The notes: generated from the letters alone by a model not told the origin. 64,000 nt of DNA from Bdellovibrionota bacterium (GCA_030584005.1 CP129486.1:2219971-2283970); one strand, 5' to 3'. Counted from the first letter of the stretch, positions 2,481-55,956 are shown. Numbers and translations: made by a program.

Positions 2481-2714
2481 TTACTTCGTGGCTGCTGCCG
2501 GCTGCGCAGATTGGAACTTGGCGTACTTCTTCTTGAAGCGATCAACACGTCCTTCTGTGTCTACCATCACCTGCTTGCCGGTGTAGAACGGGTGGCACTG
2601 CGAACAGACCATGATCCGGATCTCTTGCAGCGTCGAACCAGTCTCGAAGGTATTGCCGCAACCACTACAGATCACTTTTGAGCGAAAATACTTGGGATGA
2701 ATCTTGTCTTTCAT
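2481..2714 (-). CDS. rpmE: 50S ribosomal protein L31
   Basis: 77 aa starting MKDKIHPKY. CxxC ... CxxC zinc-ribbon pattern typical of L31 type A. Confidence 0.85.
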
Positions 2715-8125: not shown

Positions 8126-8749
8126 CTATTGCAGCAATTCATCGAGGAGTTCATCCCGGGTGCGCACTCGGGTGTCAGTCGGAGCTTCCACGGTCGGTGC
8201 ATCTATCGCGGCTGCGGCAGGGGCAGCTTGATCGGCGGCCGGGGCTACCACCTCAGGGGTAGTAGCTTCGTTGTTCAGCGCGTTGGCTGCTTCGGTCATC
8301 GTCTCATCCGATGTCGCACCGACTACCGCAGGTCCCTCTTCCGTTTTCTCTATAGCTGTGCCAGTTGAGCTGCCATCAACACCCTGGGACGAGGAGGGCT
8401 TTCCTTTAGCAGTCCGGGTGACACTGCCGGCTCGCGGGATGTTCTTTTGCGGCAACGGCTCCGTACGCTTCACCAATGTCATCGGAATTTGCAGCACGGT
8501 ACCGATCTTCATCCGTGCAGGATTGACCTTGGGGTTCGCGTTGGCGATGGCCTTCCAGTTCTCGGAGTCTCCCGTGTACCACTTAGCGATAATGGCCAGA
8601 GTCTCCCCGCTGTAGGTTACGGTGTGGGCATGGTACTGCGGGGCAGGCTGCGGAGGTGGGCCCCCTTTCTTGGCGCAACCTGCGAATGCAAACGTCACTG
8701 CCATCAATGCCACAAGGAATATTGATCTGAATTGCATGTTCATGTGCAC
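8126..8749 (-). CDS. LysM-domain lipoprotein
   Basis: Signal peptide with lipobox FAGC. LysM-like segment YTVKSGDTL-type (HTVTYSGETLAIIAKWYTGDSENWKAIANANP). Low-complexity Ala/Pro/Thr tail. Confidence 0.6.
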   Translation of the reverse strand: MHMNMQFRSIFLVALMAVTFAFAGCAKKGGPPPQPAPQYHAHTVTYSGETLAIIAKWYTGDSENWKAIANANPKVNPARMKIGTVLQIPMTLVKRTEPLPQKNIPRAGSVTRTAKGKPSSSQGVDGSSTGTAIEKTEEGPAVVGATSDETMTEAANALNNEATTPEVVAPAADQAAPAAAAIDAPTVEAPTDTRVRTRDELLDELLQ

Positions 8750-8835
8750 TCTTCACCTTACACGTTCTTCATTCGACGCATCGCGCTGTGCCTCCTTCAG
8801 GCCGCCCTAGAAGATGCCACAGCTCTCCCCTTCAC

Positions 8836-11283: not shown

Positions 11284-13074
11284 CTAGTCACTTACACATT
11301 GCCCCGGTGCGAGCACTTGCAGCAGCGCCTCAGTTTTTTTGATGGCACCCTTGACGTTCCTTCTCATGGAAGCGATCGCCTTTTTCCGTTTTAACTTCTT
11401 GGCAGTGCGATTTATCTTTGACCAGTACGCCGTGAATTCGTTGAGGATCTTGGTAAGAGCCTGGTGCGAAGATACGGAGTTGACGCCAGGACATCCCTGA
11501 CCGGCTGCACAAATGAGCCTGTATGCCGGGATGAACCCCGCTGCATTCGCCGCTGTACTGGACAGCCCTTCCGCTTGCGCCTCCAGCGTTGCGAACAGCT
11601 TCTTTGGAAAGGGCTTGCGTTGTGAGAGAGCAAATACCGCGGCAAGGCTCTCCTCTTGGATTTTCGCCAAATGCTCTGTGAGCTGCTCCCGCATCGCGAA
11701 GAGGCTCTCAAATATGCATCCATTTGCCGGCAGACAGTCGCCTCCGCTCAGGATATTCGGCGGCTCGCAGGTGGCAGCGAATTCGATATGAGTATCTCCG
11801 AGGACCTCCCCGCTCACTACGGGGGGATTAAAGGTGAAGGCCCCCTTACGTGGCAGCGCATTATACGGCACTCCGTAGGGAACTTCGGCAATAACGGTTT
11901 GGCCAGCGCCATCTGATACGGCACTCCCAAATGGTGCAACCTCCAGAGATACTCCAGCCAGCGGACGCCCATCAAACTTAAAGGTTGCAGAAAATACATA
12001 GCTATCCGCCAACGACGCATCGAAGTTCATATTCTTCTCAGGCCCGGTAACAGTAAACGTGCTGCTGGGCGGAGTAAAAGCAAGACCTGACTGCTTGGGG
12101 GTAAGGACTGCTTTTGTGCCATAGGCTGCGCTTGGAAAGTTGAAGTTGCCATCTATATCGGAGAAGACCACGCCAAGCTCACCACCATCAATAGCAATGC
12201 CGCTAAGCGGCGCTCCCAACATTGTTATCTTTCCAGATACTGGAAAGGTCCGTCGCTCCATATTGACGACCACGCCGCTCACATTTGACGTGATCAGCGG
12301 AAGTGCCTGGCTGCCCTTAAATCTCATATCAGTGACCTCGATGCTTGTGGGCGGAGTCATATGGCTCACCATAAAAGTAAACTTTCCGTCTAGTTTGGAC
12401 TGCATCTTAAGTTGCCCAAATTTTAGAAACACAGAAGATGCGGGTTTCCCCTCGAACATTGTGGTACCGGACACCGCGTGCATTGCCTTATAGCTATGCA
12501 CTAAGCTCCCAACGGAATCTTTAACAAAGGCAAAGTCCGGATGAGTGAGGCTAAACGAGGGCGTCGAGTTATAATACGAGTTCACTACAAGGAGGCCATT
12601 CGCATTAGTTACTCCCACTGCGGTCCCGTCCATTGAAACACTGACGCCGGCAAAGTTCTGCAGATTACCGCCAAATGGCTTGATTAGAGACAGAATGCGG
12701 TGAGTGACCTGTGCAACTGCGCTCTTCTTTGCTTCTACAAGTGGAAGGGTCAGGTTCATTGACGGAGTCACGATCGAGATAATTGGATCTGAGAATGTGT
12801 ATAAGGAATGGGAGGGAGAAATATCGAGGGGCACTCCTGCCAGCGATTGCTCAACGGAAATCTGAAATGCACCGTTAGGCCCTTGAGACTTCGTCGCGAA
12901 GAACCCGTCTTGGGCGCCAATGCGATAGTAGATGTCAACATCAGGGACCCCGATTCCCTCGCTTCTGACTTCACCGCTAATCAGGACGCAGTCCGAGACG
13001 CATGCGATGGCAATCACTGGCCCCGAAACAAGAGCAAGGGCAATAACCAAAGCTCCCCAGAATACAGTCCGCAT
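11284..13074 (-). CDS. large secreted hypothetical protein
   Basis: ORF 11284..13194. An internal Met gives the signal peptide MRTVFWGALVIALALVSG. About 600 aa, beta-rich, Cys-containing C-terminus. No catalytic motif recognised. Confidence 0.5.
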   Translation of the reverse strand: MRTVFWGALVIALALVSGPVIAIACVSDCVLISGEVRSEGIGVPDVDIYYRIGAQDGFFATKSQGPNGAFQISVEQSLAGVPLDISPSHSLYTFSDPIISIVTPSMNLTLPLVEAKKSAVAQVTHRILSLIKPFGGNLQNFAGVSVSMDGTAVGVTNANGLLVVNSYYNSTPSFSLTHPDFAFVKDSVGSLVHSYKAMHAVSGTTMFEGKPASSVFLKFGQLKMQSKLDGKFTFMVSHMTPPTSIEVTDMRFKGSQALPLITSNVSGVVVNMERRTFPVSGKITMLGAPLSGIAIDGGELGVVFSDIDGNFNFPSAAYGTKAVLTPKQSGLAFTPPSSTFTVTGPEKNMNFDASLADSYVFSATFKFDGRPLAGVSLEVAPFGSAVSDGAGQTVIAEVPYGVPYNALPRKGAFTFNPPVVSGEVLGDTHIEFAATCEPPNILSGGDCLPANGCIFESLFAMREQLTEHLAKIQEESLAAVFALSQRKPFPKKLFATLEAQAEGLSSTAANAAGFIPAYRLICAAGQGCPGVNSVSSHQALTKILNEFTAYWSKINRTAKKLKRKKAIASMRRNVKGAIKKTEALLQVLAPGQCVSD

Positions 13075-13703
13075 ACAAATATCTCCTATAAGCGCTTTCA
13101 AAAAAGTATTTTTGAAGCCACTCCTAACCTTACGGATCTCCTCAGCCGCATTTCGTTCATCCAATTGTCCATAAGAGGGGCATTTGTGCTCCATATTATC
13201 TGTAAATATTTTACAGTTTACTTGTCAGCGCTTTCAAAACGCACCCATGAAACCGCTTCTAGCACCCCTGCATCATTGGCAATTTCGCTGATTCTAAATG
13301 TGACCGCTCCGGGTCGCTTGGGCGAACTACACCCCTGCCATCGGTAGCAGAGGAGCGGCAATTGCTTAGCGGGTACACGAGTGCGTGTTTGCGACCCCCC
13401 AGAATGATGGGGATGCGCTCTCATCTCTCGAAACGAGAGCTGGGTATTGGGTGCCTGTGTCGCACCGCAACAGACGCCTTAACTTAGAGAGTTTCTTGGG
13501 TAGGACCCTATCGCGGATGCCGAGGGCCGTTTGGCCTTTATTTGCTGACCAAAGATGCTATTCGTGTTCGGTCATGCTGCCATGACATAAGTTCGTGTTG
13601 AAAGCTGCCTGGACTATTTGCGAGAAGCGTTAAGGGCGGACAATAGGTCAAGTGTATTTTCTACATATTGCGGTCATAACTACAGGCAACCCGAGTGCTG
13701 CTC

Positions 13704-14219
13704 CTAACTTGGCTCAGTTGGGCAGTTTGGTGTGTAAGGTTCAAACACTCCGTCCCCGTCAGGATCAATTTCACATCGGATTCGCGTATAGCCAAAATCT
13801 CGCAGCTGTTGGACTGCCTGACACATGTTTTGATCAAGCTTCCAGGGCGGGGTATCATTTCCATCACTATCGCCGATGATGCGGTCTCGCCAACCGTCAC
13901 CGATACATCTCCATACTATTCCCGCACACGCACTAGCATCGCTACAATCGTATCCCTCATCATCCATCTCCTGACCCGAGTTTGGATCGGTGTCCGGCAC
14001 GAATTCGGTGTATACACTTAGGTCTCCAATGCTCAAAACCTCAAGGGCAGTCACGGCGTCCACTTTCTCCGCATCTTCCGCAGTCTCAAGTGCGTTGGCC
14101 AACGATGCCGTCGCATTCACTCCTATAGCCAACATGAGGCCCAGTATACAGCGCCACCGGCTCTGAGAACTATTGGAGGATGAGACAGCGGCAATATAGG
14201 TTGTCATATTGGGGCGCAC
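13704..14219 (-). CDS. secreted hypothetical protein with Asp-rich calcium-binding-like motifs
   Basis: Signal-peptide-like N-terminus. DxDxDG-type motifs (EIDPDGDGVFE, GDSDGND) reminiscent of TSP type-3 or EF-like Ca-binding loops. Several Cys. Confidence 0.4.
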   Translation of the reverse strand: MRPNMTTYIAAVSSSNSSQSRWRCILGLMLAIGVNATASLANALETAEDAEKVDAVTALEVLSIGDLSVYTEFVPDTDPNSGQEMDDEGYDCSDASACAGIVWRCIGDGWRDRIIGDSDGNDTPPWKLDQNMCQAVQQLRDFGYTRIRCEIDPDGDGVFEPYTPNCPTEPS

Positions 14220-14489
14220 CTAATTTGTAGAAAGTGCAATTCAGGGTCAGGCAGGAGATGAGCAATTAACATGCCAGCAACAAACTGGAGAAACAGAGGG
14301 TGAGGTACTTACTGTGCAACTGAATTACCGCCTCAATTCCGATCACCATTTAGCAATTTCACCTAGAGCACAGCCAGAAATACCAGCAGTAGCTCGCGTA
14401 CATGTCAGGAGGGATCCGAACCTGGATTGCTCTCTCAACCTCATATGCAGTTCAGCGCGACACGCCCCGCCGACCGGTCAGAGCCTTCG

Positions 14490-14975
14490 TCAATCCCCAC
14501 GCCACTTATTCTGCTGCCGTTCAATCCATTGCCAATAGTCATCCCAAACCTTCGCCTGCTCGTCGGCAGATCTTAACTTGGCAGACGATATGGCAGCTTG
14601 CACCCGAACTGCTTGATCCCGTTGAGCTTCAACAGCCGTCCTATAACGCTGTCGAATCTTTTGAACGGTGCCATGATCAATCCAAAATCCTTCGCACCGG
14701 AAACACTGATGCACTGTTAGTGTATCGTCGCCATGATAGCCTCGTCGAAAGAGTTCGGGCTCTTCACACGCAGGGCACATCGAAACCGTTAGACTCGCCA
14801 CTGGCGCCGTACTCGCAAGTTCGTCAGGCAAGCGATGCTCAGAGGTGTCGTACATTCTGAGAGCGGCCTTAGAGAACCAGCCCCCGCAGCCATTCTTGAT
14901 ACATGAAAATAGGCCGGGGTGATTAGGAAACCCTTCCAACGGCGAACTGCATATTGGGCATTTCATAGGAGACAT
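14490..14975 (-). CDS. zinc-ribbon domain protein
   Basis: CPIC...C..C and CPAC...C..C pairs: two zinc-ribbon-like modules. Confidence 0.45.
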   Translation of the reverse strand: MSPMKCPICSSPLEGFPNHPGLFSCIKNGCGGWFSKAALRMYDTSEHRLPDELASTAPVASLTVSMCPACEEPELFRRGYHGDDTLTVHQCFRCEGFWIDHGTVQKIRQRYRTAVEAQRDQAVRVQAAISSAKLRSADEQAKVWDDYWQWIERQQNKWRGD

Positions 14976-15015
14976 AATGGGGTCCTCAATCTCCGAAATG
15001 ATATCAATACGTTTG

Positions 15016-15417
15016 TTATAGACACAACACGAGCACGACTATAAACACGATTGCGGCCGCCCATAGAAACTTACTATTCGGCGGTTGCGGTGCACCAACT
15101 TTAGCTTCATATGGGCAACTAGGAGCAGTCATTAAGATCGGCAACCACAGTACCCACGTCAAAGGGACGCACCAAGAAAGGGCCCAGAGGGGATTAATAG
15201 CCATATCCAACAATCTGAGGTAACTGAGCAGGAGAGAGATACCGAACACGATGAATAGCATGACAAACCACAATGGGTTTTTCATCGAATCGGGATCCAG
15301 CAACTCAGCCGCACGCATGGCGAGCACCAGCATTGCATAGAGAATGAGCTGCAGGCCGATGAACCTAGTGCGGTCAAGACGCCTGAATTTTCTTAAATAA
15401 TTTGACATTACTGTCAC
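15016..15417 (-). CDS. small integral membrane protein (DUF805-like)
   Basis: 133 aa with 3-4 hydrophobic helices. RLD/RLLD motifs resemble DUF805. Confidence 0.4.
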   Translation of the reverse strand: MTVMSNYLRKFRRLDRTRFIGLQLILYAMLVLAMRAAELLDPDSMKNPLWFVMLFIVFGISLLLSYLRLLDMAINPLWALSWCVPLTWVLWLPILMTAPSCPYEAKVGAPQPPNSKFLWAAAIVFIVVLVLCL

Positions 15418-15704
15418 CTGGTCGGCATGGCCGCGCCCAATTTCAATCGCACCACAGCGTTCACGCTATCACCGCATGGCCTGCCTTGCCCATCGAAAGA
15501 TTCGACGGAAGTCTACAAGTCGTTTCAAAAATGCCATCCTCGGCATTCTTCAAATTGCTCCACGTTTTGATGGGGTCCCCACGCGCGCCATCAAAACGTC
15601 GCTTCCACGGCCTGGCCGAAGATTCGGCCGTGGTGGCTGCCATCCGTGGCTGCCCTCGTGAACATGTCGGGAACAGGCATGCCGTTCTCATTATCCTGCC
15701 CGCT

Positions 15705-16211
15705 CTACGGGCCTTTGCTCAGAGCTTCAAGGCTCTTCCGAGCAGCATCGTTTTCCGGATCGAGTTTGATCGCTCGCTCAAGCATGGAAATTGCTCTGTC
15801 AGTTCTGCCCGCCTGGGATAAGGTAGCGGCCGCATTGGTGAGTGTCGTCGAATCATCTGGTGCAAGCGATGCAGCAGCTTCATGTTTCTCCAGCGCTTCG
15901 TTGATACGACCGAGAATTCTGAGGGCCACCCCCCAATTGCTCAGCAGCACGGCATTGGGGGTCAGGTACGCAGCCGCCTTACTATATTGCTCCACAGCGG
16001 ACTCGAATTTCTGATTTGCAAACAATGCGTTGCCGTAGCCAACAAGATACTGCCCCGACTGCGGCTGTAGCATCGCCGCCGATCGGAGGTAAAATTCAGC
16101 AGCATCCAGGCGGCCCTTGGAGAGGCTGTGCAAGCCACGCTCATAGCTCTGTTGCGCTCTCCGTTCTGGAGGTCCAAAGAGGATGTTCGCTATTTTTTCG
16201 CGAAAGCTCAT
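15705..16211 (-). CDS. TPR-repeat protein
   Basis: Repeated 34-aa units with the W/L-G-Y-A-F-P pattern (AxxxYxxAL.L.P). Confidence 0.6.
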   Translation of the reverse strand: MSFREKIANILFGPPERRAQQSYERGLHSLSKGRLDAAEFYLRSAAMLQPQSGQYLVGYGNALFANQKFESAVEQYSKAAAYLTPNAVLLSNWGVALRILGRINEALEKHEAAASLAPDDSTTLTNAAATLSQAGRTDRAISMLERAIKLDPENDAARKSLEALSKGP

Positions 16212-16303
16212 TCAAGATAGACCAACACAGGCCGCTCGACCCCCGCATCGCGAGGGCGCTCTGGAAAACGTATGGGGCTGCCCCTGGGTCTGAACGGGGT
16301 AGC

Positions 16304-16564
16304 CTACTTCTGGCCTTCCGGATTTTGACCGCTGGAGCCGGGTCTCTCTACAACACGTCGAACAATGCGCCCCTTCGTCAGATCGTAGGGTGAAATCTCT
16401 ACCGTTACGCGGTCACCTGGCAGCACGCGGATGTAGAACCGCCTCATTTTACCTGCGAGATAGGCCAGCAGCTCATGTCCGTTGTCACACACCACCCGAA
16501 AAGTCGTATTGGGGAAGCACTCCTTGACGACCCCATTCATTTCAATTGCGTCTTTCGCTGCCAT
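16304..16564 (-). CDS. infA: translation initiation factor IF-1
   Basis: Internal Met [24 protein letters not shown]...[16 protein letters not shown] matches the IF-1 S1-like fold with a short C-terminal tail. The longer ORF to 16708 overlaps accA. Confidence 0.8.
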
Positions 16565-16601
16565 ACACCACGTAATCCTTTGGCCCGAGGATACTCTCCT
16601 C

Positions 16602-17585
16602 TCACTCTTGGGTAAACACCCCGAGACCACGAAACTTCTTGTAACGCAGCTCGACCAGCTCTTCGACCTTGAGCTTGCCCAGCTCCTCGAGCTGCCGCGC
16701 CAACACATCGCGCAGGATCTCGGCTGACTCCTTATGGTTCCGATGCGCCCCTCCGGCGGGCTCCGGAACTACTTCATCGATCACCTGCAATTTCTTGAGG
16801 TCCTGAGCAGTTAGCCGCAACATCTCGGCGGCCAATGCCGCCTGGTTGGCTGGAGCCTCCTCGCGGTTGCTGCTATGCCAAAGAATAGAGGCGCACCCCT
16901 CCGGGGTAATCACCGAATAGCATGCATTCTCAAGCATCAAAATGCGATCGGCCACGCCCAGTGCGAGGGCCCCGCCACTACCCCCCTCGCCAATGACGAC
17001 GGATACCACCGGCACCGTCAGTTCGGCTAATTCCATGAGATTGCGCGCTATCGCTTCGGCTTGGCCGTGCTCTTCGGCTTCCAGCCCAGGATAGGCCCCC
17101 TGGGTATCAATCAGGGTGATCACCGGGAGACCGAATTTCTCAGCCAGCCGGAATAGGCGCAGCGCCTTACGATAGCCCTCGGGGTTGGGCATGCCAAAGT
17201 TGCGCTTCAACCGCTCCTGCGTGCTCCGGCCCCTCTGATGACCCACGATCATAATTGGCATCTGCCCCAATCGGGCAGTGCCCCCCACAATCGCGGGATC
17301 GTCGCGATACAATCGGTCGCCATGCAGTTCCACAAAATCAGTCAGCATGTGCGCAATAAAATCCAAGGTGAACGGCCGATCGAAATGTCGCGAGAGCTGC
17401 ACCCGCTGATAAGGGGTGAGCCTGCCGTACACCTCCGCCCTCATCTTGAGCACACGCGCTTCAAGTTTGGCGTATTCATCACGGCGCGATTCATCGCCGC
17501 CGGCTATCTGGTCCTTGAGCGCCTCAAGCTGATGCTCGAGCTCGACCAAATCGCGCTCGAAATCCAATGGGTGGGAAAGGCTCAT
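16602..17585 (-). CDS. accA: acetyl-CoA carboxylase carboxyltransferase subunit alpha
   Basis: 327 aa with typical AccA blocks: the [10 protein letters not shown]-containing region and the [11 protein letters not shown]-containing region. Confidence 0.85.
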
Positions 17586-28018: not shown

Positions 28019-29269
28019 ATGGCGTCCGCCTGGGTCTGTCTGCCCGTTTCTGTTCGCATTGCATCAACTTCACTCTCATTCGCGATTGCGCTCCTTGTGT
28101 CCGTGGGGACACCGATCGATGCATCCGCCGGGGATGCACTCGCTAAGAAGGTGTCGCGTCAAGGGCGCGTGATAAAGAAGGTAGATAAGCGGCTTCGCAC
28201 TGTAGAAATAGATGTGGCGGCGCAAGGGAGCGCAATAAATACCCTGACACAACTGAGCCAGGAGACAAGTGATCAGGTGTTAAATATCTACAATCAAATT
28301 ACGACCGGTGGCGCGGGGTCCCCGGGGGCAAAGGGAGCCGATGGTTTTGATTGCTTCGATCTGAATCAAAATCGGATCAAAGACCTGGCTGAAGATCTCA
28401 ACGATGACGGCGTCGTGAATGTGCTCGATTGCCGAGGAGAAGAAGGAGCAGTGGGAGCACAGGGTGAAGCCGGGCCGCAGGGTATTCAGGGTGAAGCAGG
28501 GCCGCAGGGCCCTCAGGGTGAAGCCGGGCCCCAGGGCCCAGCCGGCCCGCAGGGGGATCAGGGTCCAACTGGGCCACAAGGTCCCGCAGGTCCTGCCGGC
28601 GATAGGGGACCACAGGGATTCACCGGCTCACAAGGACCAGCGGGCCCACAAGGACCAACCGGTGCCACAGGAGCAACCGGTGCTCAGGGACCGCAGGGTC
28701 TCCCGGGAGATCGAGGACCGGCAGGTCCTCCAGGCCCAACCGGTCCGGCAGGACCGCCGGGACCGAATCTCAATCTGGTATGGGGGAAGGACTACCTCGA
28801 CTGGTGGGATGCTGACCTCGGATCTGATCCTTACGATGCCTTTGATGTGTCTAATGCGGGGCTCTGCAGCAACGGGGCCTTCCCCGGAGCGGGCGGAGGA
28901 ATTTCTCTGGGCACTCTATCCCAGCAGATCTCGGGACAGAAGCTTGCGCCGGGCGGCACTTATCACCTCACCGTATGGGGAGAGTTGGGGAACTTCGGCA
29001 ATGAAAGCGCCTTCGACTCCTGGATTGCGGTTCGACATTGGCTCGGCGGATCAAGCTATCTTTGGAAACGGGGTGGCGGTCGTGGCGCTAACTATCCGGA
29101 TGGCAATGCCCCCTATTCGACCAGCTTCTTTGTAACAGCGGATGCGAATGGCGATGTGCTGTTCCGTGCCCCCTGCAACAACGGGCGTTTTCCACGGATT
29201 GAGTTACTTTCGTATAAGGTAACTCGCTGCAGTATCGGCTATCTCTCGGACCTCAGTATCCTCGACTAG
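28019..29269 (+). CDS. collagen-like triple-helix repeat protein
   Basis: About 38 uninterrupted Gly-X-Y triplets ([19 protein letters not shown]...GPAGPPGP). N-terminal hydrophobic anchor, a coiled-coil-like segment, and a C-terminal globular domain of about 160 aa. Alternate-frame ORFs over the repeat are artefacts. Confidence 0.7.
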
Positions 29270-30949: not shown

Positions 30950-31504
30950 ATGTGTACCAAATCTAAATCCCATTGCCACGGTGCAGCGCTCGTCGAGTTC
31001 GCCATCGTACTCCCGCTCCTTATACTTTTCATTCAGATATTAATGCACATCGGCTGGGCCTTTACCCAGCTCACCTGGGTTAGCCAGACCACGTATCACG
31101 TAGCGATGGTAGGGTCGGAGAACCCCGTCAATGGCGGACAGGGCCCGATGCTCGGTAGAAAGGACTTCCTCGAACAGATCCAGAACCGCTGGATGCACGG
31201 ACCTCTGGGGGACGCCATCGAGTACGATGAAGAGAACTCCACCGTGGCGGTGACCCTGAACGGCCAGGTCCCCGCAATCCTATGGGCATTCACCCAGGGA
31301 ATGGGTGTACGCGTTACCGCCCCGGTTTTAGTCGCAGGCGACGGCGAGGTGGGTGACCTCAATCGGTTTGTGAACCCAGACCCGTTCTACGACTGCGAGG
31401 GAAATGAGTGCGAGGGGTCAGGACCCTGTGAGCCCACCCAGTGCACTCTAATCCCAAAGCCAAACTTCTCAGAACTTGAGGAGTATGGCTGTGACGAGTG
31501 TTAA
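30950..31504 (+). CDS. TadE-like pseudopilin-family protein with Cys-rich C-terminus
   Basis: N-terminal TadE motif GAALVEFAIVLPLLILF. C-terminal CEGNECEGSGPCEPTQC...CDEC. Confidence 0.55.
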   Translation: MCTKSKSHCHGAALVEFAIVLPLLILFIQILMHIGWAFTQLTWVSQTTYHVAMVGSENPVNGGQGPMLGRKDFLEQIQNRWMHGPLGDAIEYDEENSTVAVTLNGQVPAILWAFTQGMGVRVTAPVLVAGDGEVGDLNRFVNPDPFYDCEGNECEGSGPCEPTQCTLIPKPNFSELEEYGCDEC

Positions 31505-31611
31505 AGCCCGGGTGAAAACTGTCCTCTTGCGGTATGCGGTCCGTGATGGCTTGATCACAACTTCCTCGCCGGAAGTGCTAGGATCGAGCTAACTAAGGAG
31601 GGTTTTGCTGC

Positions 31612-32934
31612 GTGGCTCCAAAGGTTCTGATACGCAAGTTATGGCACCTCTTGGGTGCATCGCTAGTTGAGGCCGCACTTTCCATCCTCTTATTTGTATT
31701 CCTTCTTCTCGCCGTCGTTGATCTTGCACGCTACATTTACATCTATGCCGTATTAAATTACGCGGCCTACGATGCGGTGGACTTCGCCAGTAAGCGCGAA
31801 GTTGAAATTGCCACTGCGATTGGAGACTGCACACCCAGTGACCCCTGTGATGAATACCGAGAGCTGGTCGCGGAAATCCTAGCCCGCGCGGAGGAACTCG
31901 CAGATCTCGCTACCACTCGACCGAATGTTGCCAGTTCCGCACAACGTGTTGCATTTAAGCACTACGACATTGCGACTTACACAAATGGACCAGTTCACGA
32001 GTGTGACTATGATATCTGGACAGGGTTCGGCGATATCTCTACCGGGGCAGGCTTTCTAAGGCCCGGAGAGCTTGCATTACGGATCTCCCCTCATGATCCG
32101 CTCTTCAATGGGGTAATCGAACACCGCACCCGAACTCCTTCGGGCGGGGGCTGCTGGCCCCAAACAGGTGAGGTTTGGGGAACGATTGTCGAGCAGCACC
32201 CGTTGGAAGTGCGAATCGAGGCCATATTCAACGCAGTCACCCCTCTTATTCCGAACCTGACCGTTGTGGCTCGACAGTATGGATTTCGACGGACCCGCGC
32301 CTTCGGCACAGGCGGCTCAGGGACGCCATGGACCGCCGTCCCCTCGGATACGCCCACCGAGGCTCCCACAGCTACTTGGACCACAGGACCGACGGAAACT
32401 CCGACCGAGACCCCCACTGAGACTCAAACGGCCACTCATACCGGAACGGCGACTCACACCGGGACAGCCACAAATACAGGCACGGCCACTCACACGGGCA
32501 CAGTCACCCACACCGCCACACATACCGGCACCGCCACTCACACCGGAACGGTTACCAATACTGCCACCAATACCGGAACCGCAACCGCTACTGGCACCGC
32601 CACCCACACCGGCACGGTAACACATACGGGAACAGCGACGGGAACAGCGACACATACCGGTACGGCCACCCATACGGGCACGGTTACCAACACTGCAACC
32701 CAAACGGGAACCGCTACTCATACCGGTACTGCAACAAACACGGCAACGATTACATCAACGGCGACAAATACGGCGACCGCTACTTTTACCCACACAGCCA
32801 CCCACACCGAGACGCCAGCGCCGACGCCCACATTCAATTGTCCCGCATGTTTTCAGGCCTTTCCGCAATGCTCTCCCGATGGGTGCTGTGACAGCTGCCC
32901 ACAGTGCGGCGGAATTGAGCCCTGCGAAGAATAG
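31612..32934 (+). CDS. TadE-like N-terminus fused to Thr-rich tandem repeat (TGTATH)n and Cys-rich C-terminus
   Basis: N-terminus [39 protein letters not shown] linker. About 25 hexapeptide [12 protein letters not shown] repeats. C-terminus [31 protein letters not shown]. Confidence 0.55.
32431..32810 (+). repeat. 18-bp (and 12-bp) coding tandem repeat array, about 20 units, consensus ACNCAYACCGGNACNGCC
   Basis: Directly visible: acggcgactcacaccgggacagcc / acaaatacaggcacggcc / actcacacgggcacagtc and onward. Lies inside CDS 31612..32934. Confidence 0.75.
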
Positions 32935-32949
32935 CGAGGCGAGATTGTT

Positions 32950-35256
32950 ATGGCGACACGCAATGTAAGTTCTAATCACAATCAGAGGGGTGTGTATCTA
33001 TCGTTGATGGCGCTGGCAACGGTTGCGCTGCTCGCCGTTTTGATCTTGGCGATCGGAACAGGGTTTGTACTTACCGGGAGAGCACGCCTTAAGAATGTAG
33101 CGAATGTAACTGCACTTGCCGCCCTCGAACGGTTCACAAGCACCGATGAAAGCACATTCGATGCCCGCGCCAACGCCGCCCTCGCCAGGGCGAACTATAT
33201 CCTCGGTGAAAATTCAATTCCTGGATTTGCCTCAATGGCTGAAACCCTCTCGCACGCGTCTCCAGGGGTGCCAGGTGAAGCAAACAGGCTTACCTTAGGA
33301 ATGTATTACGCAAGACCGCCGGGTGGCGATGCACAACCATGCGGAGAGGACGAATCGGACTATCCCTGCTTTGTTCCGCGCTACTTCGGCACGACAGCGC
33401 CGCCCGTCGCAAATGCCGCGCGGGTGGACATCAGCGTGCCGATTACCTTTGGGCTTGGCCGATTCCTTGGTCAAGAAACATTTCTGGTAGCCGCAAGCAG
33501 TGTTGCCACCATGCGGCCACAGTCCACCGCATATCTACTCGACGTGTCCCTGTCAACAACGAGAGAGACACACAGATTAGCCGATAGTTTCGGCGTGCAC
33601 CCTTGCTTGGTCGTCGAAGGAATTGGGGGTTGCAGCGGCCCCTCGCATGCGGCCTGTCAATCCCTGCTCGACACACCGGGCTTTTACAATGTATGTCGCG
33701 CCTGCAAGATCCAAGCGAATCAATGCTATCCTGCCTGGGCCATCAAGACACAGGAGTTGTTAAACCATGAAGGTGAGCCGATCTGGGGTAACGATGAAGG
33801 GGAGATTCCCCCAGTTTCGGAGCCGTTCTTTGTAGGTCTCCCATTTCTCCGTGAGGAAGCAACAAAAGATAGCCAAGAATACCTTTGCCGGGATCCTGAT
33901 CTAATATTTGAGCCTGGCTTTCCAGAACGTCGCTATTGGTGCAATACACCTAGTCCGACTGGGGGGGGGTATCCTGCCCCGCCCTTGATGGGCGAGCCCG
34001 TCCAACATTTGCGTCCCCACTACCAAACACGCAATACACCATTTGGACTGGTGCGCTATGATTCGCTATTCCTTCCGGGCCAATACGAGGGGCCACAGCC
34101 ATTTATCCGGTTCTTCAAAGCGTTCAACGTTGGCTTACGTGAGGTACGCGCACGTGCCACGGAAGGAGACAGAGCGATGTTCTCTGCCTTCGTCGGCAAG
34201 ATCCGTGATACCTATCCCGACCCTGATGAGGATGGCGAGAGCTTGACCGAGAATTTAGGGTTTTTGGTGCAGCTCACGAATGCCGAGAACCGCGGGCTGG
34301 TGGAGTGGGACGGAGATAGCATCCCCGGAACCCGTATACATCCTAACTTTATTGATCGCGGGTGGTTTCCCATTATGGATGCGGATCCGCTCAATAATCG
34401 CACTAATCTCGTGGTGGCCATCTATCGCGCAGCAGAACGCCTGATGGAGTTCTCCGCGGTAGGCGCTCGGAAGACCATAGTCCTTGCCTCCGATGGCCTG
34501 GGAATATGCACATTTAACCCCGCCCTAGCCAACCCTGAGGATCCTGCCTCGGGGATTACCTGCCCGACTAATCGGTGGAACGGGCACGTTGGCTCGAATA
34601 ACCAGTTGATTCAGGGGGGGCTATCCGAGTTGTACCCCTCAATTAAAGACATGCTCTCTGTAGGAGAAATTTCGCTCACCGTTCTTCTAGACAGCGATCG
34701 TTTGAACCTAGCGCTCTATAACCGAGTAAACGTAGACGCGGGATGCGGCAATTGGTTCGAACACAATCGCTTCATCCCTGATAATCCCGCTTGCTATATC
34801 AACCAGGAAAACGCGCGCGCCTTTGGATTCGTCCAGGCAGCGCCAGGAGGAGAACCACAATCTGACTGGTTTCTTGATTCGCGCTCAATCGATGAGGAAG
34901 GGGTGCCAACCATAGACCACGAGACAGTTTTTAGCCAAAGTGACGGCAGGTTAGGACTCGCCGTGGGGGTACTTGCAAACCTAGCGATCGGAAGTGGCGG
35001 ATTAATATGTCCACTTTTAGAACCAGGCGCTCCCACTCAGTACCATGACTTCTCAGATCCTGAGCGCGACTGCGCGGCCCCCTGCCCAGAGTGCCCCCCA
35101 TGCACATTGAAGAGTGAGTTTCGCCAACCCAATGAGCTTTTAACTATTTCGCCGCTCTATTTGACCAAGACGGAACAAGCTGCGTTCTGCGTGGCACGAG
35201 CAGTGAATGCTGTTCCCTTTATCCTGACTGCCAACGCGCGGTTCGAGGATGAGTAG
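32950..35256 (+). CDS. TadG-like protein with vWA (MIDAS) domain and Cys-rich C-terminus
   Basis: N-terminal Tad-like segment RGVYLSLMALATVALLAVLILAIGTGFVL. DxSxS MIDAS motif LLDVSLS and downstream LASDG. C-terminal CAAPCPECPPC. Confidence 0.55.
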   Translation: MATRNVSSNHNQRGVYLSLMALATVALLAVLILAIGTGFVLTGRARLKNVANVTALAALERFTSTDESTFDARANAALARANYILGENSIPGFASMAETLSHASPGVPGEANRLTLGMYYARPPGGDAQPCGEDESDYPCFVPRYFGTTAPPVANAARVDISVPITFGLGRFLGQETFLVAASSVATMRPQSTAYLLDVSLSTTRETHRLADSFGVHPCLVVEGIGGCSGPSHAACQSLLDTPGFYNVCRACKIQANQCYPAWAIKTQELLNHEGEPIWGNDEGEIPPVSEPFFVGLPFLREEATKDSQEYLCRDPDLIFEPGFPERRYWCNTPSPTGGGYPAPPLMGEPVQHLRPHYQTRNTPFGLVRYDSLFLPGQYEGPQPFIRFFKAFNVGLREVRARATEGDRAMFSAFVGKIRDTYPDPDEDGESLTENLGFLVQLTNAENRGLVEWDGDSIPGTRIHPNFIDRGWFPIMDADPLNNRTNLVVAIYRAAERLMEFSAVGARKTIVLASDGLGICTFNPALANPEDPASGITCPTNRWNGHVGSNNQLIQGGLSELYPSIKDMLSVGEISLTVLLDSDRLNLALYNRVNVDAGCGNWFEHNRFIPDNPACYINQENARAFGFVQAAPGGEPQSDWFLDSRSIDEEGVPTIDHETVFSQSDGRLGLAVGVLANLAIGSGGLICPLLEPGAPTQYHDFSDPERDCAAPCPECPPCTLKSEFRQPNELLTISPLYLTKTEQAAFCVARAVNAVPFILTANARFEDE

Positions 35257-35446
35257 TCGTTGATTCGATCAGCTGCGAATGGCCTGCGCTGTCCGAAAGA
35301 GCCCCTGAAGAGTGCCTTCATCAGATCGGTCCTTGGCCGTGCACCTGCCATGGGGTCGAAATCGTGCAATAGTCCTAATGGTCGCAGCCTACGCAATCCC
35401 AACTTACTCTCACGCAGAGCATATGTATTGATATAGACGAAGAAAC

Positions 35447-35529
35447 TGCCCAGGAGAGGACTTGAACCTCCACGGCCTTTCGGCCACCAGCCCCTCAAAC
35501 TGGCGTGTCTACCGTTCCACCACCTGGGC
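35447..35529 (-). tRNA. tRNA-Leu (anticodon GAG), type II with long variable arm
   Basis: Manual fold: acceptor GCCCAGG/CCTGGGC plus discriminator A; 3-bp D-stem; anticodon stem CCAGT/GCTGG with loop TTGAGGG (U33, anticodon GAG, G37); variable hairpin GGCCGAAAGGCC; T-arm GGAGG-TTCAAGT-CCTCT. 83 nt, no encoded CCA. Confidence 0.85.
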
Positions 35530-35553
35530 ACAAAAGAGATATGTAGGGTCGCT

Positions 35554-35988: not shown

Positions 35989-36774
35989 CTAATTAACGAT
36001 TCGAACCTCTGAATCCGTTTGGGAGCTTGTATCAAGAATACTCTTTAATTTCAACGCCAGCTCCCGATACACTTTGCCGACGTTGCTATTCCCATCAAGC
36101 ACCACCGGCATACCATTATCCCCACCCTCACGGACTGAGATGTCGATAGGGATCTGCGCTAAAAGGGGCACTCCGAGCTTTTCAGCCAAATGCTTCCCCC
36201 CATCCTTTCCGAAAATCGGAATCTGCTGACCATCAGGTTGAATATACGCAGACATATTCTCCACAATCCCCAGCACCGGTACCTTCACCCGATCGAGCAT
36301 GCTTATGGCTTTGCGCACATCGGCCAGGGCTACCTCCTGCGGAGTAGTTACGACCACCGCGCCGCTTAAGCGAAGCATCTGGGTAAGGGATATCTGCGCG
36401 TCTCCCGTGCCTGGCGGCATATCGACGATGCAGTAGTCGATCTCGCCCCAATTCACATCCTGAAACAGCTGCTGCAATGCCTTATTAAACATGGGCCCGC
36501 GCCAAATGACGGCATCATCGGGGTTGCGCAGGAAAAATCCGAGGGAAACGTACTTAATGCCGTGCTTTAGCGGCGGCACAAGCTGCCCTTCATGATCAGC
36601 GATGACCTCCCCACCGCCCATGAGCGTGGGGATGCTGGGACCGTAAAAATCACTGTCTACCAGCGCCACCCGTGCGCCGGTGAGCCCGAGCCCAACCGCC
36701 AAGTTGACCGCTAGTGTTGATTTGCCTACACCACCCTTTCCCGATACCACCGGGACTATGTGTCTCATCGCCAT
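35989..36774 (-). CDS. Mrp/ApbC-family Fe-S cluster carrier ATPase
   Basis: Deviant Walker A VSGKGGVGKSTLAVNLA, CxxC and the ParA/MinD fold. Confidence 0.85.
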   Translation of the reverse strand: MAMRHIVPVVSGKGGVGKSTLAVNLAVGLGLTGARVALVDSDFYGPSIPTLMGGGEVIADHEGQLVPPLKHGIKYVSLGFFLRNPDDAVIWRGPMFNKALQQLFQDVNWGEIDYCIVDMPPGTGDAQISLTQMLRLSGAVVVTTPQEVALADVRKAISMLDRVKVPVLGIVENMSAYIQPDGQQIPIFGKDGGKHLAEKLGVPLLAQIPIDISVREGGDNGMPVVLDGNSNVGKVYRELALKLKSILDTSSQTDSEVRIVN

Positions 36775-47601: not shown

Positions 47602-48819
47602 TTATTTGTGTCCAAAGACCAGCATCAATAGCTGTTTCATCCGAACAAGGATGCTCCTTTCGTGCTCTGCCCGTGGTGCCTGGGCCATTGCAGCGCTTTG
47701 AGTATCAACAGGTTGGTCATCAACCTTGGCAGTAGTAAGTACCCTCTGACGGGATTGCACTGCTAAGTCTGCTAAGTCGGACAGCGTCGACGTCCCGAGA
47801 TCTGTTGCAACGGCATCAAGAGGGCTTTTGGTCCCGACTCCTTTTTCTATCGTGACATGGGTATAAATCATAGTGGTTTTAAGATCGTTGTGACCAAGTA
47901 ACACCTGTACCGTTCGTACATCGGTCCCCGAATCGAGAAGGTGAGTTGCAAACGAGTGGCGACAGGTGTGGCAGGTCACTTTCTTTTGAATACCGGCTTT
48001 TTTGACCGCACAAGCCAAAGCATCTTGCATAATAGTTGGGTAGAGATGCCAGCGTCCTTCTTTTCCTGTACGTGGGTCCATTGAGCGCTTAAGCCAGGGG
48101 AAGACATACTGCCATTTCCATTCGGCGTCGGCGTTTGGATACTTTCTTTGAAGCGCATACGGAAGAATCGTGCGACCGAAGCCCTCCTTTATGTCTTGCC
48201 CGTGAACAACGTTCGCTTTCTCAAGTTGCTTTCGTAGTGGTCCTCTCAGGAACTTGGGGAGTGGGACGGTTCTATCTTTCTCGCCTTTGGCATCCCGAAC
48301 GATTATGAGATTCCGCTCGAAGTCTATATCTTTGACCCGGAGTTTTAACACCTCGATGAGCCGCATGCCGGTGCCATAGAGCAGGCATCCAATCAACCAC
48401 TGTACGCCAGACAGATTTTTTATGACTGCTATCATCTCATCAACACTTAATACAACAGGGATGTGCCTTGGCCTCTTGGCCCAGACGATTCCTTCAAACA
48501 TTCCAGGATCCATCTGAAGAACGTGTTTGTAGAGGTACACGATTCCGTTGAGCGCTTAATTCTGAGTCGCAGCGGACACGTTCTTGTAAGCTGCGAGGTA
48601 GCTCAGGAACTGAGTAATCTCCTCGGCTCCCATCTCTCTTGGGTGCTTGCCTCTGTGAAACGCAACAAACCGCTTGGCCCAATGGGTATATGTTTTCTCG
48701 GTAAATTGGCTCATATGCGCGAGGCGCATCTTCTCTCGCATTACCTGGAAGAGTCCCTTAGGCTTGCTCGCGGCGGGAGGGCCGAGGCTGATCCTTTCTC
48801 TGGGGTTGCATGGGTCCAT
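47602..48819 (-). pseudogene. intI: integron integrase IntI, interrupted by in-frame TAA (stop at 48556..48558)
   Basis: ORFs 48556..48819 and 47602..48540 are in the same frame. Together they align end-to-end with IntI: N-terminus YTHWAKRFVAFH; LLYGTGMRLIEVLKLRVKDIDF; KGEKDRTVPLP; the IntI-specific extra segment ALQRKYPNADAEWKWQYVFPW; the catalytic HTCRHSFATHLL..LLGHNDLKTTMIYTHV. TAA sits where IntI1 has Gln (..STHRQALAAL..). Confidence 0.85.
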
Positions 48820-52785: not shown

Positions 52786-54340
52786 AGTCAAGAAATAAAA
52801 AGAGAGTTCTGACCGAACCCTGGAGGCCTTTCTAATTCTTGAGAACCGCGCGTATTGCGAGGGTAGATTTCTAAGAACGGTTTGTAGGTGCCGCGAAGGC
52901 GTCTACACCAAACAGCTATTGGGGGTCGTTGAGCCACCAGAAACCCATCTGACACCTGCACGTAAGCTATGCAAGGAGATCGGGATAAGCGCAGAGGCTT
53001 TCACCAGTTGTTACGAGCCGAACGGAGGAGGCAGACGCGTAAGATCAGTTCCAAGCTATATGTAAAAGTGGGACGTGCGAGAGTTCTAGACAAACGTGGT
53101 GCGAGCTTTTTGGCGATGCAGCATGCGTGACGGACAAGCTTGAAGAGCTTACGAGTGTCGACGCGAATGGATTTGAATCGCCTATAAGTAGCTCAGTTAT
53201 ACCGCGAGACTCATCCCGCACTCCCGAAAAATCAGTTAAGCTGCGTTGGCATAAAATTTCTCAGCCTCCCACGGAGTTCGGCGTAAAAGGATAAAGTACA
53301 CAATTCTGGCGATTTTATGAGCGAGAACTGCGAGTGCTTTTGGCTTAGGATGCTTGCGGCAGAGAGCTTCGTACATTCTTTTTCCCTCTGCTGTGCGCAA
53401 AGAGAGCACAGCCGCTTCGGCGAATGCCCAGCGCAGGTGATGATTTCCGATTTTGGCACTCCCCCGGACACTGCCGCCTTTGGATTTCCGGCAGAGGTCT
53501 TCTGTGGCTTTATCAGCCGACAGTAAGATACAAAGTCCTGTACCGAGGGAAAGCGTGTGATGTCGTGAATCTCATAGAAGATAGTGGCAGAAAGGACAGG
53601 TCCGATGCCAGGAACGCTTCGGAGTAGTGCGATATTGAATCCAATCTCACCCTTGAGCTTTACTTGTGAAGTGACAAAGCTTTCGAGGTTATGGATCTGC
53701 GTAGTGAGATGTCCAATGGTGGCCAGGTCAGTCTCAACCATTCGGACAACAGCCTCGTCGCTGAATGGAATATCGAGTTCATTACGGCTCTTGTGATGAA
53801 CAAGATCAGTGGTAGGCGGTGGCAGGTTGTATTGCTGAAAGGTCATCTGAACATGGGCCAAGAGCTCTGACCGTCGATGAACGAAGAACAGCCTGCGTCG
53901 CATAAGGTCACGTGCTCCCCGCTGCTGTGCCGGGTAGACGAAGGCTTTTGGCAACATGCCACTCTTCAGAAGCATCGCAATTTTTTCAGAGTCGATTCGG
54001 TCATTGGCAGCTTTGCCACCGTGGATAGCTTTCATATACAGCGCATGCCCAAGGACAAACGTGATCCCCTCAGCCGCGCACACGTCAGCCAGCCAATACC
54101 AGCAGAACATGCACTCAACCGCTATGGCAAGGTTCTCGCGATACGGCGCAATGACCCTTAGCAACGCCTCCTTATTGGGCACATTCTTATGACACAGGAC
54201 TTTCCCTACCTTATCGACAATGCACACGTACATCGTCTTTGCATGCAGATCGATACCGCAGTAATATTCATGCTGTTCGTTATAGAACTTCATAAAAGCC
54301 TCCGTTTTGAGTTTCGCTCATGACCAATGAGCTTGCTCCC
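52786..54340 (-). mobile_element. IS110-family insertion sequence inserted within an attC site (boundaries approximate)
   Basis: Transposase ORF 53232..54293 lies between two halves of a single attC. The left half is GGATAACAGCTATAAGGCCCC at 52761. The right half is GGGGGCCTTTATGAGTG..GTCAATCC at about 54371, complementary to the left half. Total about 1.55 kb. Confidence 0.5.
53232..54293 (-). CDS. IS110-family transposase (DEDD/RuvC-like N-terminus)
   Basis: N-terminus CGIDLHAKTMYVCIV (the DEDD_Tnp_IS110 start). C-terminal block LRSVPGIGPVLSATIFYEIHDITRF...GNPKAAVSGG typical of IS110/IS1111 transposases. Confidence 0.85.
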   Translation of the reverse strand: MKFYNEQHEYYCGIDLHAKTMYVCIVDKVGKVLCHKNVPNKEALLRVIAPYRENLAIAVECMFCWYWLADVCAAEGITFVLGHALYMKAIHGGKAANDRIDSEKIAMLLKSGMLPKAFVYPAQQRGARDLMRRRLFFVHRRSELLAHVQMTFQQYNLPPPTTDLVHHKSRNELDIPFSDEAVVRMVETDLATIGHLTTQIHNLESFVTSQVKLKGEIGFNIALLRSVPGIGPVLSATIFYEIHDITRFPSVQDFVSYCRLIKPQKTSAGNPKAAVSGGVPKSEIITCAGHSPKRLCSLCAQQREKECTKLSAASILSQKHSQFSLIKSPELCTLSFYAELRGRLRNFMPTQLN

Positions 54341-55494: not shown

Positions 55495-55956
55495 ATGGAT
55501 CATCTTCCCCACATAAGGCGCGCGATTGAATTGGCTGCGCTAGCTCGTGAGCGCGGCGACGAGCCCTTTGGTGCGCTATTGGTATTGGACAACAGAGAAA
55601 TTCTCTGCGCGGAGAACTCTGTACGCCTTGCTAGAGATCCAACGAACCACGCCGAGATGAATCTCGTGCGCAAAGCCTGGCAAGAACTGTCACCATCAGT
55701 GATTGCAGATTCGATTCTTTATACATCGACCGAGCCTTGTCCTATGTGCACTGGAGCTATTTTTTGGTCGGGGATCCGTCGAGTGGTTTTCTCGTTCTCG
55801 GCAGAAGATCTGGGAAAGATGGCAAATGACAAATTTTGCGGTCCATGTAGCGTTCTGTTCAATCGTGCAGAGCAGAAGACCGAAGTCATTGGCCCGATAT
55901 TAGCGGAAGAGGGTCGCAGAGTGCACGAGGGATTTTGGAGTAGCGTCAACAGATAA
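55495..55956 (+). CDS. CMP/dCMP-type zinc deaminase (guanine deaminase / TadA-like)
   Basis: HAE...PCxxC zinc-binding signature (NHAEMNLVRKA ... EPCPMCTGAIFWSGI). 153 aa. Starts 47 nt after the upstream ORF with no attC between them. Confidence 0.75.
   Translation: MDHLPHIRRAIELAALARERGDEPFGALLVLDNREILCAENSVRLARDPTNHAEMNLVRKAWQELSPSVIADSILYTSTEPCPMCTGAIFWSGIRRVVFSFSAEDLGKMANDKFCGPCSVLFNRAEQKTEVIGPILAEEGRRVHEGFWSSVNR

Follow-up and report, generated by a model that had tools for sequence, protein, structure and literature searches.

A cysteine-rich TadE/TadF/TadG-like gene trio in a Bdellovibrionota bacterium and its likely identity as a Tad-pilus tip cassette

The Tad-like Kil pilus of Myxococcus xanthus is equipped with four KilL/KilM/KilN complexes that are homologous to TadE, TadF and TadG (Herrou et al., 2025, PMC12075869). 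For three of the four, the genes lie apart from the kil machinery, each set in a three-gene cluster of its own. Heterotrimeric "spearhead" tips containing many intramolecular disulfides are predicted for the complexes, combinations of which are needed for the killing of different prey (PMC12075869). Structure searches in the same study predicted Tip-like complexes in Bradymonas, in Bdellovibrio bacteriovorus (Bd0114/Bd0115/Bd0148) and among the tadEFG sets of pathogens (PMC12075869). In B. bacteriovorus, the tad genes are distributed among several loci, tadG stands by itself and there is no TadV; Flp1 is processed by PilD, and a knock-down of tadG impairs prey invasion (Tesseur et al., 2026, bioRxiv 10.64898/2026.07.08.737194). 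Here, we describe three consecutive genes, P1, P2 and P3, on the plus strand of a stretch of 64,000 nucleotides from a Bdellovibrionota bacterium (GCA_030584005.1, CP129486.1:2219971-2283970), hereafter referred to as the window. We consider it likely that the trio is a self-contained cassette that encodes the complex of minor pilins at the "tip" of a Tad (type IVc, Flp) pilus, the machine of which is encoded elsewhere. The genes and their parts are located as follows:

30950-31504, plus strand: P1, 184 aa, a small TadE-like minor pilin (basis: PF07811, 28.7 bits)
30950-30982, plus strand: P1 leader, M1-G11, with predicted cleavage at G11/AALVEF and Glu at position +5
31394-31501, plus strand: P1 C-terminal cysteine cluster (C149, C154, C160, C165, C181, C184)
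31612-32934, plus strand: P2, 440 aa, GTG start, a TadE/TadF-like minor pilin with a C-terminal extension (PF07811, 38.4 bits)
31612-31656, plus strand: P2 leader, M1-G15, with predicted cleavage at G15/ASLVEA
31657-32316, plus strand: P2 conserved, presumably pilin-like globular domain, residues 16-235 (mean column identity in the alignment, 45%)
32317-32838, plus strand: P2 Thr-rich linker, residues ~236-409, with repeats of the TGTATHTG type
32839-32931, plus strand: P2 C-terminal cysteine knot, residues 410-440, with 8 cysteines
32950-35256, plus strand: P3, 768 aa, a TadG-like large modular pilin/adhesin
32950-33519, plus strand: P3 N-terminal module, residues 1-190, consisting of leader, alpha-1 helix and four-stranded sheet
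32950-32991, plus strand: P3 leader, M1-G14
33520-35229, plus strand: P3 domain of the von Willebrand factor A (vWA) type with large insertions, residues ~191-760
33541-33555, 34276-34278 and 34492-34494, plus strand: P3 metal ion-dependent adhesion site (MIDAS), D198-x-S200-x-S202, T443 and D515, respectively
33574-33885, plus strand: P3 hypervariable cysteine-rich insertion, residues 209-312 (C219, C228, C236, C249, C252, C259)
35071-35103, plus strand: P3 C-terminal cysteine cluster, C708-x3-C712-x2-C715-x2-C718 (CAAPCPECPPC)

An initial annotation of the window had proposed three co-oriented genes with Tad pseudopilin-type N-termini, and open reading frames (ORFs) were found at exactly these coordinates, with N-termini of the quoted type in all three proteins. 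P1 and P2 are separated by 107 nt and P2 and P3 by 15 nt, and the GTG start codon of P2 is preceded by a strong ribosome-binding site, AAGGAGG. Judging from their conservation, these are not chance ORFs, because the same trio is present in a syntenic relative and because P3 has 124 cluster representatives at E<=1e-30. Identical proteins at NCBI, which come from a 2.28-Mb contig of a metagenome-assembled "Bdellovibrionota bacterium" genome, are named "pilus assembly protein" or, for P3, "Tad domain-containing protein."

The trio resembles canonical TadE/TadF/TadG proteins in combining two small pseudopilins with a G/xxxxE motif (PF07811; the slash marks the cleavage site) and a large vWA protein with a hydrophobic Tad N-terminus, and in having the genes arranged on one strand in the order small, medium, large. 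Unlike in canonical loci, no tadA/B/C, rcpA, tadZ, tadV or flp gene accompanies the trio, at least not within the 64 kb. P3 differs from canonical TadG in being too diverged to pass the thresholds of hidden Markov models (HMMs) and in having a vWA domain that is broken by a large hypervariable cysteine-rich insertion, while P2 differs from canonical TadF by a Thr-rich linker of ~170 residues and a terminal cysteine knot. All three proteins are also far richer in cysteine than their canonical counterparts.

The similarities to KilL/KilM/KilN include the organization into a three-gene cluster with one short, one C-terminally extended and one large protein (here 184, 440 and 768 aa), the location of the clusters apart from the machinery, the presence of several paralogous sets per genome, the many disulfides, and a host lineage that is predatory. 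There are, however, also differences. The distal domain of KilN was reported to have no homolog in the PDB, whereas P3 has a clear vWA/MIDAS domain with a large insertion; a Thr-rich tether with a cysteine knot, as in P2, is not described for KilL or the Kil tips (PMC12075869); and cassettes of the trio can be arrayed in tandem, unlike the KilL/KilM/KilN clusters. We therefore classify the trio as TadE/TadF/TadG-like and, in its presumed mode of working, as Tip-like, but not as a member of the Kil Tip family, the likeness to which is one of description. The predicted Tip of B. bacteriovorus (Bd0114, Bd0115 and Bd0148) is similar in that it belongs to the same phylum, with dispersed tad genes and a tadG located off the machinery, and P3 may be likened by description to this lone tadG/Bd0148. 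In B. bacteriovorus HD100, the isolated gene is tadG alone, the two small pilins being encoded in tad locus 1, whereas the trio described here travels as a compact, often multi-copy cassette.

The TadE model (PF07811) matched both P1 and P2 with scores above the Pfam gathering cut-off of 22.9 bits, while none of the three proteins had a match in NCBIfam. Both proteins contain the elements of a class III signal, namely a short basic leader, Gly at position -1, Glu at position +5 and a hydrophobic helix (G11/AALVE16F in P1 and G15/ASLVE20A in P2). G11 and E16 are invariant among 13 homologs of P1, in which C149 is also conserved, and G15, E20, C73 and C79 are invariant among 13 homologs of P2. 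The G/xxxxE motif corresponds to the signature of prepilins that are cut by peptidases of the TadV/PilD type, and because this motif is invariant and the HMM scores are above threshold, P1 and P2 are TadE-family pseudopilins.

P2 consists of a conserved domain of ~235 residues, a Thr-rich region and a terminal cysteine knot, and has an overall Thr content of 22%. Imperfect tandem repeats with periods of 18, 36, 48 and 66 nt were found in the Thr-rich region (32428-32726), where Thr alternates with small or polar residues (T-G-T-A-T-H-T-G...), as compared to the Thr-Pro pattern of the homologs, which contain TPT-type linkers of very different lengths. An AlphaFold model of P2, built from an alignment of three sequences, had a predicted local distance difference test (pLDDT) score of 41.5, with moderate confidence only for the N-terminal helix (residues 4-61); pLDDT values were below 35 in the Thr-rich region, for which both a disordered linker and an ordered, Thr-faced beta structure are possible. 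This stretch probably serves as an extended tether, which may be O-glycosylated and bears a small disulfide knot. In the locus of the syntenic relative (L003, from a Logan assembly), the P2 ortholog at 8617-9936 on the plus strand was not called as a gene, and spurious minus-strand ORFs had been called over the Thr-rich repeat at 8797-9423 and 9420-9815. Protein databases thus probably contain too few P2-type proteins, a possible reason for the small number of matches in word-index searches.

P3 scored 16.0 bits against PF13400 (Tad) and 13.8 bits against PF09977 (Tad_C), both below the cut-off, with the weak matches falling in the N-terminal module, and it had no match to the VWA HMMs in Pfam. 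Among 60 full-length relatives of P3, 28 matched PF13400 (best E-value 5.4e-8), 7 matched Tad_C and 4 matched VWA_2. The support expected from HMMs was thus obtained for P1 and P2 (TadE), was lacking at every threshold for P3 taken by itself (Tad and VWA models), and was recovered at the level of the P3 family. The AlphaFold model of P3, which was based on an alignment of 74 sequences, had a pLDDT of 88.3 and a predicted template modeling score of 0.88. It contains a hydrophobic alpha-1 helix of 52 residues (13-64), a further helix and four strands (residues 113-120, 140-144, 156-166 and 177-188), which together form a pilin-like module, followed by an alpha/beta domain in the C-terminal part that adopts a vWA fold. 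The MIDAS residues are highly conserved among the 74 sequences (D198 in 73, S200 in 69, S202 in 64 plus 7 with Thr, T443 in 69 and D515 in 71), and the sequence DVSLS...LASDG, which had been suggested to indicate a vWA/MIDAS domain in the third gene, is a genuine MIDAS within this fold. Because of the matches of its relatives to PF13400, Tad_C and VWA_2, combined with a vWA fold with a conserved MIDAS, P3 is predicted to be TadG-like, as had been proposed.

PDB searches with sequence profiles of the P1, P2 and P3 families yielded nothing significant. At the level of structure, the best match of the P3 model was a true pilin with a vWA domain, PilB, a modular type IV minor pilin of Streptococcus sanguinis (PDB 7b7p), which ranked ahead of isolated vWA domains. 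The model thus suggests that P3 shares the PilB-like modular pilin fold, although the sequence identity is only 10%, PilB is smaller (420 versus 768 aa) and lacks the large cysteine-rich insertions, and PilB belongs to the type IVa pilus (T4aP) system of a Gram-positive bacterium, unlike P3. The tip adhesins with vWA domains found in sortase pili and type V pili (GBS104, RrgA, PitA, SpaC and Mfa5) are functional analogs only; they are assembled by sortase or strand exchange and have no class III signal peptide, unlike P3.

Residues 209-312 are the part of the P3 family alignment with the least information content and the largest gap fraction; this insertion ranges in length from 24 to 131 aa across the 74 homologs and is cysteine-rich in P3. 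The stretch of low pLDDT in the P3 model covers residues 210-290. In the model, the insertion directly follows the DxSxS loop of the MIDAS and would be placed beside the presumed ligand-binding face.

G14 was present in 71 of the 71 ungapped sequences of the P3 family, in which position +5 is hydrophobic throughout and never Glu. In type IV filaments and type II secretion system (T2SS) pseudopili, a subunit without Glu5, such as GspK, is located at the very tip, and by analogy the missing Glu5 fits P3 as the distal subunit. The same feature, along with the sub-threshold match to PF13400, would also be compatible with a different arrangement, in which the trio is a membrane-anchored adhesin or sensor complex that is not part of a filament and functions in the inner membrane independently of pili, with the N-terminal helices serving as uncleaved signal anchors. 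Aggregatibacter TadG has been described not as a processed pilin but as a protein of the inner membrane, and in none of the 10 loci examined below is the cassette located directly beside a pilus machine. However, the invariant G/xxxxE motif in P1 and P2 would serve no purpose in a plain signal anchor, the best structural match of the P3 model is a true pilin with a vWA domain and a PilB-like fold, and the twenty conserved disulfide-type cysteines and the mucin-like linker point to an exposed extracellular location. Furthermore, the published Tip clusters show the same dispersal and are nonetheless linked to the Kil pilus by genetics (PMC12075869). An anchored, pilus-independent complex is therefore considered unlikely.

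The three proteins contain 8, 12 and 20 cysteines in total (P1, P2 and P3, respectively), of which 6, 12 and 20 are retained in the mature proteins. The initial annotation had drawn attention to dense C-terminal cysteine clusters, and such clusters are indeed present in all three proteins, with 6 cysteines at residues 149-184 of P1, 8 cysteines at residues 410-438 of P2, and C708, C712, C715 and C718 in P3, which has 16 others. They had been noted as atypical of TadE/F/G, but disulfide-rich Tip clusters are documented in predatory bacteria. The cluster in P2 is maintained as a small knot, with C410, C426 and C432 invariant and C420 and C429 nearly so among the 13 homologs, while the P1 cluster is variable past a conserved "YDC" motif. 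All 20 cysteines of P3, including those of the C-terminal cluster, are invariant in its closest ortholog. In the family as a whole, cysteines at C712 and C718 were found in only 20-34 of 74 sequences, and the C-terminal cluster of P3 is for this reason interpreted as a lineage-specific elaboration.

Ten cysteine columns are conserved among the 74 relatives of P3 (131, 140, 192, 313, 331, 502, 520, 538, 687 and 747), and when such a cysteine is lost, the loss is shared with a partner: 192/502 in 3 of 3 cases, 313/331 in 5 of 5, 520/538 in 1 of 1 and 687/747 in 3 of 3. P3 itself has no cysteine at either position 192 (33523-33525) or position 502 (34453-34455), where cysteines are present in 71 of the 74 relatives, including the closest ortholog, and this double substitution supports a 192-502 disulfide. 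The number of cysteines in the mature protein is even for 10 of 13 members of the P1 family, 12 of 13 of the P2 family and 46 of 74 of the P3 family.

The spacing of the cysteines in CxxC and CxxxC patterns (CDEC in P1, CPAC and CPQC in P2, and CPECPPC in P3) is reminiscent of metal-binding modules, such as zinc ribbons or Fe-S-like clusters, and the dense C-terminal clusters might be viewed as such modules rather than as disulfide knots. This is very improbable. Because the conserved cysteines of P3 are lost strictly in partner pairs, they follow the pattern expected of disulfide pairs rather than of metal clusters; this pairing concerns the conserved cysteines of P3 and not the C-terminal clusters of P1 and P2. 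In addition, the cysteine counts are mostly even, the export-type N-termini imply folding in the oxidizing periplasm or outside the cell, and the clusters have no conserved His and a spacing that is poorly conserved among homologs. The window also encodes a thioredoxin-fold AhpC/TSA-Redoxin protein (1892-2548, minus strand) and a transmembrane thiol:disulfide reductase of the DsbD type with a fused thioredoxin domain (6885-8120, plus strand). These genes are located 23-29 kb from the trio, and a periplasmic disulfide isomerization system of this kind could serve cysteine-rich pilins.

We searched for relatives of the trio in other genomes. Word-index searches with P3, P1 and a profile of the P2 domain recovered the proteins themselves and only one or two relatives, with a relative at 54-62% identity. 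In the syntenic relative, the trio is found in the same place beside the aspartate kinase gene. Exhaustive HMMER searches with two P3 orthologs identified 332 cluster representatives at E<=1e-3, including the 124 at E<=1e-30 mentioned above, nearly all of which are 650-850 aa in size and align over their full length. A scan for loci that covered one genome per species was performed with an alignment-based profile, two other alignments being too diverse for pattern design, and yielded seven loci, all in Bdellovibrionota, Oligoflexia (a class of Bdellovibrionota) or "Deltaproteobacteria" metagenome-assembled genomes (MAGs). Scans of metagenome contigs gave zero loci and then one short locus, and a contig scan of genomes with P3 alone gave no locus.

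In a census based on searches with P1, P2 and P3 over the ORFs of all loci, the three genes were always found together and in this order. The 14 cassettes recorded are spread over 10 loci in Bdellovibrionota/Oligoflexia MAGs. Two of the loci (L008 and L009) are second loci in the same MAGs, and three contain tandem copies:

L004, 7859-21982: three cassettes in tandem
L005, 7843-17164: two cassettes in tandem
L007, 5755-15403: two cassettes in tandem

The tandem copies fall into two subfamilies that have been maintained across genomes, with 41-63% identity within and 34-39% between subfamilies, which suggests that they are old paralogs. By analogy, the tandem cassettes may represent a tip repertoire comparable to Tip1-4 of Myxococcus.

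The absence of tad machinery, prepilin peptidase and flp genes from the window, as stated in the initial annotation, was confirmed. No T2SSE/CpaF, T2SSF/TadBC, secretin, TadZ or A24 peptidase was identified by Pfam among the 44 ORFs of at least 150 aa in the window, and nothing Flp-like was seen among 50 small intergenic ORFs. When 753 ORFs of at least 30 aa in the window were analyzed with the three family HMMs, a class III signal motif scan and phmmer with the PilD and T2SSE proteins of L008, only P1, P2 and P3 were recovered. A candidate TadZ, the Mrp/ApbC-type ParA protein encoded at 35989-36774, was rejected because it matches PF10609 at 4.4e-90 and is located in conserved housekeeping synteny. 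P1 and P2 are thus outside the usual setting of a tad/cpa locus, with no Tad machinery gene in the 64-kb window; this setting is common without being obligatory, as the tip1-3 clusters of Myxococcus and the tadG of B. bacteriovorus illustrate (PMC12075869; 10.64898/2026.07.08.737194). None of the 10 loci has a cassette directly beside Tad machinery; the cassettes are flanked by housekeeping genes, namely those for transketolase, gyrase, NadABC, flagellins and PrkA/SpoVR. An "orphan" location is thus normal for the cassette. While the trio is isolated from tad genes within the window, as had been noted, this is not an oddity, since dispersed Tip and tad genes have been published (PMC12075869; 10.64898/2026.07.08.737194); an orphan location and dense cysteines are both to be expected for such systems in predatory lineages.

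The nearest filament genes were found in L008, where a PilD-type prepilin peptidase (A24_N_bact and Peptidase_A24) and a PilR-type sigma-54 response regulator are located 7 kb upstream of the cassette and a fragment of a T2SSE ATPase 8 kb downstream. We count the peptidase in favor of a Tad-pilus tip. The same genes may also be taken to suggest that the trio encodes minor pilins of a type IV filament other than the Tad pilus (a type IVa pilus or a T2SS-like pseudopilus), and in B. bacteriovorus PilD alone serves both the T4aP and the Tad pilins (10.64898/2026.07.08.737194). Such an assignment is nevertheless quite improbable: the HMM matches are specific to Tad families (TadE, Tad, Tad_C) rather than N_methyl/T4aP pilin families, the Phe/Met(+1) context for N-methylation of T4a pilins is absent from the mature N-termini, the short, medium and large vWA proteins mirror tadE-tadF-tadG, and the genes in L008 are separated from the cassette by 7-8 kb with unrelated genes in between.

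If the trio encodes the tip of a Tad pilus, P1 and P2 would be minor pilins of the TadE/TadF type and P3 a modular pilin of the TadG type with a vWA adhesion head. All three would enter the inner membrane by means of their N-terminal hydrophobic helices and be cut after the conserved Gly by a prepilin peptidase of the PilD or TadV type that is encoded elsewhere. The three alpha-1 helices would then bundle into a heterotrimeric priming complex on the Tad platform, below which the Flp subunits would polymerize. As the tip-most subunit, P3 would have no subunit above to pair with, which would account for the lack of Glu5. The vWA/MIDAS face and the hypervariable, disulfide-rich insertion of P3 would thereby end up at the distal end of the filament, where P3 may bind a ligand on a surface or on prey through a metal ion and so contribute to predation, while the cysteines would form structural disulfides that stabilize the extracellular parts.

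Several observations weigh against this interpretation. No Tad machinery, Flp pilin or prepilin peptidase is encoded within the 64 kb, and a partner pilus system has to be assumed. P3 itself is below every Pfam threshold and has no NCBIfam match, and the P2 model is so poor that the pilin fold of P2 is indicated solely by the N-terminal HMM match and the motif. The tip1-4 HMMs of Herrou et al. are restricted to Myxococcota (PMC12075869). Finally, the trio evolves no faster than its neighbors, with 57-69% identity to the syntenic relative as compared to 54-87% for the flanking housekeeping genes, which rules out an accelerated evolution of the trio and leaves no signature of arms-race diversification between close relatives.

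Should the Tad-tip interpretation be correct, the idea of adaptable tips would reach beyond Myxococcus, and a second predatory phylum would likewise possess Tad pili armed with minor-pilin complexes that are encoded separately and in multiple copies. The cassette is a candidate head for the recognition of prey or surfaces in lineages known only from metagenomes, with a conserved MIDAS flanked by a hypervariable insertion. Nothing is overturned by these results, as the mechanism and the dispersed organization were already published in 2025-2026; the variant features relative to the known Tip-like systems are the Thr-rich linker and cysteine knot of P2 and the hypervariable insertion beside the MIDAS of P3. 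For annotation, the lesson is that P3-type proteins slip under the Pfam and NCBIfam thresholds and that P2-type genes are sometimes mis-called owing to their Thr-rich repeats, and such cassettes are therefore under-counted.

A broader scenario, which we put forward as a rather doubtful possibility, is that Bdellovibrionota other than Bdellovibrio carry a repertoire of ancient, interchangeable tip cassettes for Tad pili, with at least two subfamilies, up to three copies in tandem and further copies elsewhere. Each cassette would pair a MIDAS adhesin, in which the insertion sets the specificity for ligand or prey, with a TadF-like subunit that bears a long, glycosylated, mucin-like tether and a cysteine knot. 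If so, the cassette family would be a determinant of prey range or attachment in the phylum. A mucin-like tether ending in a cysteine knot is an architectural element that has not been described for the tip of any type IV filament.

In four of the loci, genes for a GT2 glycosyltransferase, an amine-oxidase-like flavoprotein, a PMT_2 (GT-C) mannosyltransferase-family protein and a DUF2298 protein are located divergently beside the cassette, as identified by Pfam in L004 and L005 and inferred from matching ORF sizes and N-termini in L006 and L007:

L004, 3444-7602: glycosylation-type neighbors
L005, 21-7617: glycosylation-type neighbors
L006, 1776-7418: glycosylation-type neighbors
L007, 516-4799: glycosylation-type neighbors

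The products of the GT2, PMT_2 and DUF2298 genes may O-glycosylate the Thr-rich linker of P2, but this is a weak hint, because the four loci represent one ancestral arrangement and no such genes are present in the window. Downstream of the trio in L009, at 13660-17329, a further TadE-like ORF (286 aa, PF07811 at 1e-5) overlaps an ORF of 945 aa that has no Pfam match and begins with a hydrophobic N-terminus like that of TadG; this pair may be a second, different minor-pilin set.

The trio in the window is flanked upstream by an aspartate kinase gene on the opposite strand, and downstream, also on the opposite strand, by tRNA-Leu(gag) (35446-35530, minus strand), secG, the Mrp/ApbC-type ATPase gene and a radical-SAM gene; a tRNA-Leu and secG had been correctly placed there by the initial annotation. 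The GC content is uniform over the trio region, and a scan for promoters and terminators identified no more sites than in shuffled sequence. A 416-aa ORF (28019-29269, plus strand) located 1.7 kb upstream of the trio, with the aspartate kinase gene in between, has a signal-peptide-like N-terminus, ~130 residues of collagen GXY repeats (Pfam Collagen, 2.9e-18) and a C-terminal domain of ~170 aa. It also has partial matches, far below the cut-off, to models of Lcl/Scl collagen-like adhesins, and L003 has two small unrelated ORFs in this place.

From ~48 kb to the end of the window, the GC content falls from ~0.56 to ~0.50, starting at a tyrosine integrase gene (47602-48540, minus strand). An IS110-family transposase (53232-54293, minus strand) and a cytidine/MafB19-like deaminase (55495-55956) are also encoded in this low-GC stretch, along with several ORFs that have no Pfam match, and the segment 47602-64000 is probably an integrated mobile element or genomic island. 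Elsewhere in the window, a Ser/Thr protein kinase with C-terminal HEAT repeats is encoded at 8836-10641 on the minus strand, adjoined by a 636-aa ORF on the same strand (11284-13194) with no Pfam match at 1e-5.

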